From: Octopus sinensis
Taxonomy: Eukaryota
Direction of reading: 5' to 3'
Assembly (NCBI RefSeq): GCF_006345805.1
Contig: NC_043003.1
Location: forward strand, 84,878,001 to 84,942,000
Length of the DNA stretch: 64,000 nucleotides
In this document: one piece after another, positions 1,875 through 10,800 of the stretch
How positions within the stretch are numbered: the stretch's first letter is position 1
Layout: each line of letters starts with the position of its first letter
Notes under the pieces: generated by a model
Databases searched by the model: none
The model's input: the letters and a program-made list of their open reading frames with translations, nothing else
Told to the model about the DNA's origin: nothing
Translations under genes and position numbers: made by a program

Positions 1875-1895
1875 CTGTAGAATTTGTGTCAGGGG
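1875..1895 (-). CDS. 21-nt micro-exon (APDTNST)
   Basis: tatttccag|CCCCTGACACAAATTCTACAG|gtaagt. Confidence 0.85.
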
Positions 1896-4800
1896 CTGGA
1901 AATATTTAAAATACATATTATTATACAAACAAATCTAATTGCAAATTCATATTCCGTAATAAATATTTGGAATATACTATATATCATTTTATGATTACTC
2001 TAATAATTTCTGCAATCACTTGCTATCGATTATTTACAAACTAATTTACATAATATAATTGACATGGAGGACTATATATTAAGATGAAAAGATATGTGCT
2101 TTCCAATGAAAATCGTTTAATGCATTACCACTACCAACACCAATTGAAATGCACTGACATAACTATGATAAGTCTATTTACCTCACCGTAAATATCGAAG
2201 AAAGGAACACGGCATATAATATACGCATTTCATATCAAATACATATTATTCGTTTTGTTAATTACAAATTTTGAATTATGTGAAAAACACGACCTCCACA
2301 TTGTTCACAACGTTACCTCAGCTATTTACTTTAGAGACCAAGGAAGGCTTGATATTGGTAAAGTAAATAACAGATATGTATCAATATACAGCAACATACA
2401 TCAATACTTATTGTTTCATATAATTTTATAATATTTACAACGCTTCAAAACATAAATATTTTCGTATCTTTATAATAGTTCGTAACGAAAATATGAAGTG
2501 CTTCAAATATGGGCAGAGGTCGTGCAATTTTGTGGGTGATCAATTCAATCTTTTACATTAGACAAAATTGTTGAGCGTGACTATATTTTTCCGTCTGGCA
2601 CAGGAGCTAATGCATTGATAAACATGCCGGCATTTCAATGCATACCGAAAAGAGACACATGATGGTCAACTCAGCATTTTGGCCACACGTTAAATATTCT
2701 GTCAGTTGCATACCTCAAGAATCTATCAATAAAGCGATGAATATTTTAATTGTAAAATTCATTGAAAATTAACTTATTTATATAATAGAATCACTTACCT
2801 GTAGACTTTGTGTCAGGGGCTGGAAATATTTAAAATACATATTATTATACAAACAAATCTAATTGCAAATTCATGTTCCGTAATAAATATTTGGAATATA
2901 CTATATATCTTTTTATGATTACTCTAATAATTTCTGCAATCGCTTGCTATCGTTTATTTACAAACTACTTTACATAATATAATTGACATGGAGGACTATA
3001 TATTAAGATGAAAAGATATGTGCTTTCCAATGAAAATCGTTTAATGCATTAGCACTACCAACACCAATGGAAATGCAATGACATAACTATGATAAGTCTA
3101 TTTACCTCACCTTAAACATCGAGGAAAGGAACATGGCATATAATATTGGCATTTCATATCAAACTAATATTATTCGTTTTGTTAATTACAAATTTGAATT
3201 ATGTGAAAAACACGACCTCCACATTGTTCACAACGGTACCTCAGTTATTTACTTTAGAGACCAAGGAAGGCTTGATATTGGAATATAGAGTAACAATAAC
3301 AGTTTACTTTATACAAAATTACAATGTAATGCTTTTATCAGATATTTCTAGATATCCATTACCATTTTGTGTGCTATTTATCATACAAAAGTTATTAATA
3401 ATCCAAAATTAGAGCACCCAGATATAAAGAATGGTCTGATTCATAGCGTGCACGTTGATACAATACTTCAACTGTTTCATTTTCGTCCAAGCGAAGCATT
3501 ACTATAACTATTTCTTTTACATTATGAAACTATATACTAAATCTATGTTTGCTAACTGTTATTTATAAACACTTAAATTTTAATACAATTTCAAAATGTA
3601 CGACGATATGCACAATCTACACGTATGTGCGTGCAATTTTCTAATTACTTAATATTCATACTTTCTAACATTGTAATTTTCATTAATTTCACATCACCTA
3701 AAAATGATATCATTGATGATTATGGTAAGAGCTCTCTATAAAATATATCTTTCACAAACTCGATCAGATTTCATCACTCAAAATGTTTCTGGAAATTTCT
3801 ATATTTCATGTCATTCATATAACCGTAAATACTGCATCATTTTTTGAATCCTTTTTACATCCTACACATTTTCAGTTCCTGCTCAGATTAATTGACTAAA
3901 CTCTATTATTATTTCTGGCATTATCTTCTGCTCATTATGCTAACCACATTCGAAACTACGACATCATTTCCATGTCAGCAGCAAATATTTAATAGAGGTA
4001 ATATTTGTAATGCATGTCATCTTTTGTTCCATAAAGTTTTACCAAAGTTCAAACATTCTTACACAATAATTTATACTTCAGTGTTTCACCAATGCAACAG
4101 GTAAAGTAAGTTACAGATATGTATCAATATACAGCAACATACATCAATACTTATTGTTTCACATAATTTTATGATAGTTACAACGTTCCAAAACATAAAT
4201 ATATTCGTATCTTTATAATAGTTCGTAACGAAAATATGAAATGCTTCAAATATGGGCAGAGGTCGTGCAATTTTGTGGGAGATCAATTCAATCTTTTACT
4301 TTAGGCCAAATTGTTGAGCATGACTATAGTATTCTGCCTGGCACAAGAGCTAATGCATTGATAAACTTGCCGGCATTTCAACGCATACCGAAAAGAGACA
4401 GATGATGCTCAACTCAGCATTTTGGCCACACGTTAAATATTCTGTCAGTTGCTTACCTCAAGAATCTATCAATAAAGCGATGAATATTTTAATTGTAAAA
4501 TTCATTGAAAATTAACTTATTTATATATGAGAATCACTTACCTGTAGTCTTTTTGGTAGGGGCTGAAAATATTTAAAATACGTATTATTATACAAACGAA
4601 TCTAATTGCAAATTCATATTCCGTAATAAATATTTGGAATATACTATATATCTTTTTATGATTACTCTTATAATTTCTGCAATCTCTTGCTATCGTTTAT
4701 TTACAAACTAATCTACATAATATAATTGACATGGAGGACTATATATTAAGATGAAAAGATATGTGCTTTCCAATAAAAATCGTTTAATGCATTAGCACTA

Positions 4801-7800: not shown

Positions 7801-10800
7801 CAATCTTTTACTTTAGGCCAAATTGTTGAGCGTGACTATATTTTTCCGCCTAGCACGTGAGCTAATGCATTGATAAACTTGCCGGCATTTCAACGCATAC
7901 CGAAAAGAGACAGGTGATGCTCAACTCAGCTTTTTGGTGACACGTTAAATATTCTGTCAGTTGCTTACCTCAAGAATCTATCAATAAAGAGATGAATATT
8001 TTAATTGTAAAATTTATTGAAAATTAATTTATTTATATATGAGAATCACTTACCTGTAGTACTTGTGGTAGGAACTGGAAATATTTAAAATACGTATTAT
8101 TATACAAACGAATCTGATTGCAAATTCATATTCCGTAATAGATATTTGGAATGTACTATATATCTTTTTATGATTACTCTTATAATTTCTGCAATCTCTT
8201 GCTATCGTTTATTTACAGACTAATTTACATAATATAATTGACATGGAGGACTATATATTAAGATGAAAAGATATGTGCTTTCCAATGAAAATCGTTTAAT
8301 GCATTAGCACTACCAACACCAATTGAAATGCACTGACGTAACTATGATAAGTCTATTTACCTCACCGTAAATATCGAAGAAAGGAACACGGCATATAATA
8401 TACGCATTTCATATCAAATACATATTATTCGTTTTGTTAATTACATATTTCGAATATTGAGAAAAACACGACTTCCACATTTTGCAGATTGTTATCTCAG
8501 TTATTTACGTCAAGACCATGGTAGATCGACATTGCAATATACAGTAACAGTAACATGCAGTTTAATTTATACAGAATTACAATGTAATGCTTTTATCAGA
8601 TATTTCTAGATATTCATTTCCATATTGTCTGCTATTTATCATACAAAAGTTATTAATAATCCAACATTAGAGCACCCAGAGATAAAGAATGGTCTGATTC
8701 ATAGCGTGCACGTTGTCACTGATTGATACAATACTTCAAATGTTTCATTTTCGTTCAAGCGAAGTATAACTATAACTATTTCTTTTACATTATGAAACTA
8801 TATACTAAATCTATGTTTGCTAACTGTTATTTATAAACACTTAAACTTCAAAACAATTTGAAAATGTACGACGATATGCACAATCTACACGCATGTGCGT
8901 GCAACTTTCTAATTACTTAATATTCATACTTTCTAACATTGTAATTTTCATTAATTTCACATCACCTAAAAATGATATCATTGATGATTACGGTAAGAGC
9001 TATCTATAAAATATATCTTTCACAAACTCGATCAGATTTCATCACTCAAAATGTTTCTGGAAATTTCTATATTTCATGTCATTCATATAACCGTAAATAC
9101 TGCATCATTTTCTGAATCCTTTTTACATCCTACACATTTTCAGTTCCTGCTCGGATTAATTGACTAAACTCTATTATTATTTCTGTCATTATCTTCCGTT
9201 TATTATACTAACCACATTCGAAACTGTGACATCATTTCCATGTCAGCAGCAAATATTTAATAGAGGTAATATTTGTAATGCATGTCATGTTTTCTTCCAT
9301 AATGTTTTACCAAAGTTCAAACATTCTTACACAATAATTTATACTTCAGTGTTTCACCAATGCAACAGGTAAAGTAAATTACAGATATGTATCAATATAC
9401 AGCAACATACATCAATACTTATTGTTTCACATAATTTTATGATATTTACAACGTTTCAAAACATAAATATATTCGTATCTTTATAATAGTTCGTAACGAA
9501 AATATGAAATGCTTCAAATATGGGCAGAGCTCGTGCAATTTTGTGAGAGATCAATTCAATCTTTTACTTTAGGCCAAATTGTTGAGCGTGACTATATTTT
9601 TCCGCCTGGCACGTGAGCTAATGCATTGATAAACTTGCCGGCATTTCAACGCATACCGAAAAGAGACAGGTGATGCTCAACTCAGCTTTTTGGTGACACG
9701 TTAAATATTCTGTCAGTTGCTTACCTCAAGAATCTATCAATAAAGCGATGAATATTTTAATTGTAAAATTTATTGAAAATTAATTTATTTATATATGAGA
9801 ATCACTTACCTGTAGTACTTGTGGTATGAACTGGAAATATTTAAAATACGTATTATTATACAAACGAATCTGATTGCAAATTCATATTCCGTAATAGATA
9901 TTTGGAATGTACTATATATCTTTTTATGATTACTCTTATAATTTCTGCAATCTCTTGCTATCGTTTATTTACAAACTAATTTACATAATATAATTGACAT
10001 GGACGACTATGTATTAAGATGAAAAGATATGTGCTTTCCAATGAAAATCGTTTAATGCATTACCACTACCAAAAGCAATTGAAATGCAATGAAATAACTA
10101 TGATAAGTCTATTTACCTCACCGTAAATATCGAAGAAAGGAACACGGTATATAATATTGGCATTACATATCAAACAAATATTATTCGCTTTGTTAATTAC
10201 ATATTTCGAATTATGTGAAAAACACCACTTCCACATTGTTCAGAATGTTATCTCAGTTATTTACTTTAGAGACCATGGTAGGTCGCTATTGGAATATACT
10301 GTAACAGTAACATCCAGTTTACTTTATACAGAAGTACAATGTCATGCTTTTATCAGATATTTCTAGAACTTCATTTCCATCTTGTGTGCTATTTATCATA
10401 CAAAAGTTATTAATAATCCAACATTAGAGCAGCCAGATATAAAGAATGTTGTGATTCATAGCGTTCATGTTGTCACTGAATGACACATTACTTCAACCGT
10501 TTCATATTTCTTCAAGCCAAGCATTACTATAACTATTTCTTTTACATTATGAAACTATATACTAAAACTATGGTTGCAAATTGTAACTTATAAACACTTA
10601 AATTTCAATACTATTTCAAAATATACGACGATATGCACAATCTACACGTATGTGCGTGCAACTTTCTAATTACTTAAAATTCATGCTTTCTAACATTGTA
10701 CTTTTCATTAATATCACCTAAAAATGATATCATTGATGATTAGTTACGAGCTCTCGATAAAACATACCTTTCACAAACTCGATCAGATTTCAACACCGAG

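Follow-up and report, generated by a model that had tools for sequence, protein, structure and literature searches.

The results of this analysis suggest that a repetitive locus of Octopus sinensis contains three copies of a gene whose product is predicted to be a mucin-like peptide with a signal peptide and a glycosylphosphatidylinositol (GPI) anchor, and that the micro-exons of this gene diverge faster than the introns surrounding them. The window analysed is a stretch of 64,000 nucleotides of contig NC_043003.1 (84,878,001–84,942,000) from an assembly of 2.72 Gb. It was read together with 200 kb flanks, and coordinates outside 1–64000 are window-equivalent (84,878,000 is to be added to obtain the contig position). 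According to our preferred interpretation, to which we would assign a probability of about 60%, the micro-exons encode the variable middle of a Ser/Thr/Pro surface glycopeptide and are subject to diversifying selection, while gene conversion homogenises the introns. The evolutionary signature is already known, from opsins, conotoxins and the micro-exon genes (MEGs) of schistosomes, and it is the gene that is unusual.

The three gene copies are referred to as A (minus strand), B (plus strand) and C (minus strand). Copies A and B lie head to head in a giant inverted duplication of 49 kb (11285..60347, centre about 34,740), of which B is the other arm, and copy C is located about 150 kb to the right of the window copies (C7, about 85,009,000–85,077,000). 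With simple repeats masked, the paralogous background amounts to 425/24,060 sites between A and B, 313/28,962 between A and C (1.08%) and 448/23,898 between B and C. Six 21-nt phase-1 exons of copy A are carried by a tandem array (1060..11269) of exon-plus-intron units of about 1756 bp, 91–99% alike. All six lie on the minus strand at the positions given by the original prediction, each with an AG acceptor and a GTAAGT donor: 1875..1895 (peptide PDTNST, with an N-x-T sequon), 2799..2819 (PDTKST), 4542..4562 (PTKKTT), 6298..6318 (PTTKTT), 8054..8074 (PTTSTT) and 9810..9830 (HTTSTT). The splicing of the last five is deduced from these AG/GTAAGT boundaries, and a contig joint lands on the first in two of four sequencing runs. 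Copy C has nine such units, and the 15 tandem units together carry nine alleles of the 7-codon exon. Among 27 candidates scored in the genome the tandem unit is confined to this neighbourhood, and a genome search with the last exon of the gene gave three matches.

Neighbouring exons of array A differ by 1, 4, 3, 2 and 1 nt, as originally described. The accompanying statement that no change is silent holds to the extent that every changed codon in the five neighbour pairs is a replacement, but 1 of the 11 changes (GCC/GTT) is silent on any path, and adding the second array brings in purely silent differences, which make up 3 of the 15 column changes. Nine of the 21 exon columns are variable, compared with 86 of 843 shared intron columns (Fisher p=1.6e-4), and diversity is 0.219 in the exon versus 0.045 in the intron (array A, about fivefold). 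No intron window reaches the exon density, whether the windows overlap (0/803) or not (0/40). Base composition was considered as a cause and rejected, as the excess survives adjustment for GC content (2.4 variable columns expected, p=2.5e-4); it also persists when adjacent co-occurring changes are merged (7/21 vs 81/843, p=0.003) and is repeated in array C (7/21 vs 43/1018, p=2.7e-5). When 12 full-length units are compared, 11 sites vary in the exon, which has 7 haplotypes, whereas the maxima in 1695 intron windows are 6 sites and 5 haplotypes. The peak of divergence is limited to the exon, the adjacent 21-nt windows having 0–3 variable sites. The most variable intron window (up to 7/21 sites) is found about 195–220 nt downstream of each 21-nt exon in both arrays.

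Support for diversifying selection depends on the comparison of gene copies. The 30-nt exon at 14379..14408 (minus), the first mucin exon of copy A, differs from its counterpart in copy B (57209..57238, plus) at 2/30 nt, both replacements as had been noted, within flanks differing at 3/600. Among the four Ser/Thr/Pro-type exons common to the copies, 13 changes are replacements and none is silent, against background expectations of 1.96 and 0.77; the replacement excess is significant (p=1.7e-7) even relative to the most diverged 2-kb window (p=9e-4). Tests of the ratio of replacement to silent substitution (dN/dS) gave p=0.014–0.022 for these shared exons and p=0.016–0.026 for the pooled set (3 silent vs 25 replacement). 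The five neighbour pairs from which diversifying selection had first been proposed do not establish it by themselves (1 silent vs 10 replacement, p=0.11), but significance is reached with the exons shared between copies. A pooled count along a spanning tree (2 silent vs 32, p=0.001) was set aside in favour of the stricter column count, because it depends on ties (another count gives 3 silent changes in the 21-nt set) and counts recombined changes twice. Among the built-in controls, a 29-nt exon with an AT donor, dead in all three copies (12544..12572, minus, in A; 59043..59071, plus, in B), shows 1 change vs 0.68 expected, the last exon, which encodes the GPI signal, is invariant between copies (0/65), and exon 1, which encodes the signal peptide, has 3 changes vs 1.09 expected (p=0.10).

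At the variable columns, an N-glycosylation sequon is switched on or off (N vs K/S before T-T or S-T), and the number of Ser and Thr residues and the charge change as well. This points to a glycan-peptide surface facing an outside binder as the likely target of selection. The selective agent would most likely be a surface-binding microbe or parasite, with the peptide serving as a decoy or in evasion, as has been proposed for glycophorins; self or gamete recognition would also fit a surface glycopeptide and stands on a par with the microbe role in evidence. The venom role that had been suggested alongside these is not supported, in view of the 0–1 Cys per predicted protein and the GPI-signal-like tail.

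Several results weigh against selection as the cause. Counts are small and the copies are not independent. Taken singly, two of the five neighbour pairs do not stand out (p=0.53 and 0.59), and 11 of 1695 intron windows tie with the exon when the four full-length A units are taken alone. If the changes in the shared exons are merged into nine events, the excess has p=0.002 against the mean background and p=0.19 against the worst window. The 21-nt exons alone (3 silent vs 12 replacement) give p=0.25–0.29, or p=0.10–0.11 by other counts, and the contig joints described below reach one of the six 21-nt exons, exon 1 remaining a prediction. Silent divergence in the 21-nt exons (pS 0.10–0.14) exceeds intron diversity (0.03–0.045), and this excess of two to four times is what would be expected of a local mutator that raises the rate at all exon sites, for instance through error-prone repair or multi-nucleotide mutation directed at the spliced micro-exon. 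Adjacent double changes are indeed frequent, and two recently dead exons, lost since the copies separated, have diverged too. A remnant at 11335..11356 (minus), homologous to 60253 and lacking its 3' end and donor, differs from B and C by 5–6/22 nt vs 10–14/250, and a dead 30-nt exon at 910..939 (minus; donor CT for GT) differs from its homologue in C, where the acceptor is broken instead, by 3/30 vs 9/269. Either these exons diverged before their death, or mutation is locally high. A mutator is nevertheless distinctly unlikely, given the lack of silent changes between copies (0 vs 0.77 expected), the background level of the long-dead exon and the invariance of the last 6 nt of the 21-nt exon in 15/15 copies (partly a splice constraint). 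The substitution spectrum is also ordinary (12/28 transitions vs 0.53, p=0.34), with no sign of a CpG or deamination-type spectrum in the exon changes.

Gene conversion shapes the divergence pattern, a factor absent from the original prediction. Copy C has two exon types, 7 nt apart, and two of its units are mosaics. Unit 169540 carries the markers of one type from −36 to +13 within the flanks of the other (bounded at −76 and +46), and unit 173039 does so from −4 to +13 (bounded at −36 and +46), corresponding to tracts of at most about 120 and 80 nt, respectively. The two units have common distal markers and may go back to a single event. It follows that the type of an exon does not track that of its flanks, because either short tracts carrying the exon were converted or the flanks were homogenised while the exon was spared. 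Breakpoints so close to the exon would also be produced without any selection for change, if the mucin stalk is tolerant, the introns are converted, and drifted mismatches in the exons stall conversion, yielding a self-reinforcing island of divergence. The raised silent divergence of the 21-nt exons, the non-significant dN/dS of that set and the loose correlation of exon with flank divergence (Spearman 0.23) are all compatible with such stalling. Stalling would not lead one to expect 13 replacement changes between copies with 0 silent ones, though; 14379 and the 36-nt exon, with 2–3/30 differences within flanks of 3–7/600, contain too few mismatches to stall conversion, and the dead 29-nt exon, in an equal type of unit, has no island. 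We therefore regard stalling as unlikely.

The different types of 30-nt exon, said to be barely alignable within well-aligned flanks, do exceed their ±120-nt flanks in 21/21 pairs (mean 0.50 vs 0.20), but this contrast partly reflects conservation of the flanks. In old pairs, the first 100 nt of the intron differ by 0.15–0.18, compared with about 0.3–0.4 farther out, a value that global alignment can only overestimate, and some of the contrast therefore stems from conservation of the proximal intron itself. It could be argued from this that the exons are neutral and that the flanks are unusually conserved because they are needed for micro-exon inclusion. For young comparisons this is largely refuted, the excess holding against whole 1756-bp units and against the between-copy background of 24–29 kb, which is mostly repeat-derived; as a general account it is very unlikely, and as a partial explanation it is limited to the old 30-nt pairs.

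Repeat arrays are hard to assemble, and copy C, so close to A, may represent either a genuine duplicate or an allelic haplotype that the assembly placed in tandem. Errors of assembly or sequencing as the source of the exon differences are extremely improbable all the same: they would neither concentrate in exons nor spare splice sites and frame, identical alleles recur in several units (3 and 5 copies), and the 36-nt exon is present in contigs in its B/C form.

If diversifying selection and gene conversion act together as proposed, unequal crossing-over would add and remove whole exon-plus-intron units, and conversion would homogenise the units except where an exon variant would be erased. Units can be gained or lost without a frameshift because the exons are symmetric (phase 1), so the stalk could grow, shrink and lose modules in frame. 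Selection would favour new or retained exon variants, which would gain or lose sites for O-glycans (S/T), N-x-S/T sequons and charge, such that the glycan coat presented outward would keep changing.

Each copy consists, in order, of a 46-nt ATG exon, micro-exons in phase 1 that are 21 or 30 nt long, one exon of 36 nt (A −3552, B 67406, C 151786) and a last exon (A −8902, B 71916, C 146333). Predicted exon 1 lies at 24185..24230 (minus) in copy A, where it encodes the ATG and a signal peptide of 15 residues (mean hydropathy 3.5 over residues 4–14) and ends in a phase-1 donor, and at 45114..45159 (plus) in copy B. The other 30-nt micro-exons of copy B are at 60253..60282, 62645..62674 (exclusive to this copy) and 63361..63390, all on the plus strand; the flanks of the last are B's closest match (85–87%) to the 21-nt units. 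Phase 1 is the sole frame open in all exons, exon 14379 having stops in the other two. The frames joined in silico are open over 110 (A), 98 (B) and 141 aa (C), with S+T fractions of 0.48, 0.27 and 0.44, Cys counts of 1, 0 and 1, and 1, 3 and 5 N-x-S/T sequons, respectively. In copy A, 222 of 333 coding nt are in phase-1 exons of 21–36 nt. The last exon encodes 20 residues with a hydrophobic, uncharged end followed by the stop codon: the C-terminus consists of 18 uncharged residues (mean hydropathy 1.9) running to the stop, and before them come small residues and then a polar spacer. GPI signals combine small residues, a polar spacer and a terminal hydrophobic run. Signal cleavage, GPI anchoring and glycosylation of the product are predicted on these sequence features, and the mature part would comprise about 52–95 residues, with a variable number of micro-exons. 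A search of intron 1 revealed no convincing folded-domain exon, only 5–9 weak candidates per copy, several of them visibly in repeats, although an exon that is small or has poor splice sites could have escaped this search.

Two differences between copies were observed in the outer exons. The last base of exon 1 (24185 / 45159) is T in A and C and G in B, so that the codon across the first intron would specify Cys in A and C but Gly in B; a single N-terminal cysteine is thus possible in A/C. In the 36-nt exon, the candidate GPI attachment site is Arg in A and Ser in B and C, the contigs carrying the B/C form, and the anchoring of the copy A product may differ from that of B/C.

Evidence for splicing comes from contigs of 4 of the 24 listed runs, from four studies; the kind of run was guessed, none being recorded as RNA, and exact exon–exon joints were used rather than depth. 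In these putative RNA contigs, the junction between the last two exons preserves the phase-1 frame: cover of the last exon ends at its acceptor and the contig continues into the B/C form of the 36-nt exon (4/4 runs), which is joined in turn to a 30-nt exon at −1150 across an exact intron of 2366 nt (4/4 runs). In two of the four runs, labelled organism A, this 30-nt exon is joined to the position of 1875 across an exact 2995-nt CT..AC intron, skipping 910; the 24 letters on that side of the joint are too few to identify the allele. In the other two, labelled organism B, it is joined to 910-type sequence, with a second 910-type exon in between in one run. Exon content thus differs between the two labels, and no variation within one organism was seen among the joints listed. 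Exons of the 910 type, which lost different splice sites in A and C and are dead in both, are spliced into the organism B contigs, apparently as two consecutive exons. The open reading frames in three copies and the spliced contigs in 4/4 runs support the original view that the micro-exons are functional.

Among the closest parallels are schistosome MEGs, which are described as having mostly very small symmetric coding exons, a signal peptide, secreted or membrane-anchored products, tandem duplicates and raised dN/dS, with alternative splicing of the micro-exons generating a pool of variants; they appear restricted to platyhelminths, according to the same source (PMC4350168). The octopus gene likewise has mostly very small symmetric exons and tandem duplicates, together with a signal peptide and a membrane-anchor type of tail, as judged here from the hydropathy of the first and last exons. 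Unlike MEGs, its exons arise by visible tandem duplication of 1–1.8-kb units and it ends in a GPI-signal-like exon, the likeness being one of architecture. CD52 has a signal peptide, a short glycosylated peptide and a GPI signal but no folded domain. CD24 is reported to have the same plan, with N-x-S/T sequons and a fixed mature peptide of 33 residues (PMC8347636). The octopus proteins resemble both in being 98–141 aa long, S/T-rich and devoid of a folded domain, with 1–5 sequons and signal and GPI-type ends; they differ from CD24 in their longer mature part, variable number of micro-exons and three copies, so that the resemblance is architectural.

GYPB contains a pseudoexon, an exon silenced by a splice-site mutation. 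Human glycophorins A, B and E are encoded by three paralogous segments and are described as small surface proteins that carry glycans, the cluster showing changes in copy number, gene conversion and reported selection, with a decoy role proposed (PMC10205821). The octopus gene has three copies, gene conversion and exons silenced by independent splice-site losses in common with them, but glycophorins are transmembrane proteins with identified pathogen ligands. In exon 5 of the red and green opsins, an exon-limited peak of divergence in homogenised introns has been taken as a mark of selection (PMC3924837). The octopus peak is similarly confined to the exon within converting duplicates, but the opsins are two copies with two fixed functional sites and the octopus locus has 15 tandem units, 9 alleles and three gene copies. 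Positively selected sites of conotoxins are concentrated in the mature-peptide exon, and an error-prone polymerase has been hypothesised (PMC3862624). Replacement changes focus on particular exons in both cases, with a mutator raised as the alternative for both. Unlike conotoxins, the octopus copies lack a cysteine framework and share an invariant hydrophobic anchor-type tail instead of a released peptide. A literature search, outside supplements and subscription papers, found no such gene in a cephalopod and no MEG-like GPI mucin outside flatworms; the papers listed for micro-exon genes and molluscs all dealt with parasites.

Other features of the window were also recorded. At the centre of the palindrome, an inner inverted repeat of 689 bp (33903–34590 / 34888–35576) has 99.7% identity, exceeding the similarity of the outer arms. 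Arm B contains an insertion (48936–51489), missing from arm A, with a fragment of a long interspersed element (LINE) reverse transcriptase. On the opposite (plus) strand, a 19-nt stretch with AG/GTAAAG boundaries recurs at 1415–1440 and at equivalent positions in other units; its length is not a multiple of three, and it is probably due to chance.

The locus resembles a satellite, and ordinary gene finders would therefore miss the gene. It offers a small, testable example of selection acting on exons of seven codons, in which dead exons and 24–29 kb of paralogous background serve as internal neutral controls, and it would allow the old conotoxin question of selection versus local hypermutation to be addressed with population data. 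It would also extend the micro-exon-gene design, described as restricted to flatworms, to a free-living mollusc, and is a candidate variable cell-surface marker. A bolder proposal, possible but doubtful at present, is that a micro-exon gene in the style of schistosomes arose independently in this mollusc and encodes a GPI-anchored "variable glycan coat", built from cassettes of 7–10 residues that are duplicated, converted, splice-silenced and positively selected. If this is true, species, individuals and perhaps cells would display different glycopeptide barcodes, in an arms race with pathogens or in self or gamete recognition.

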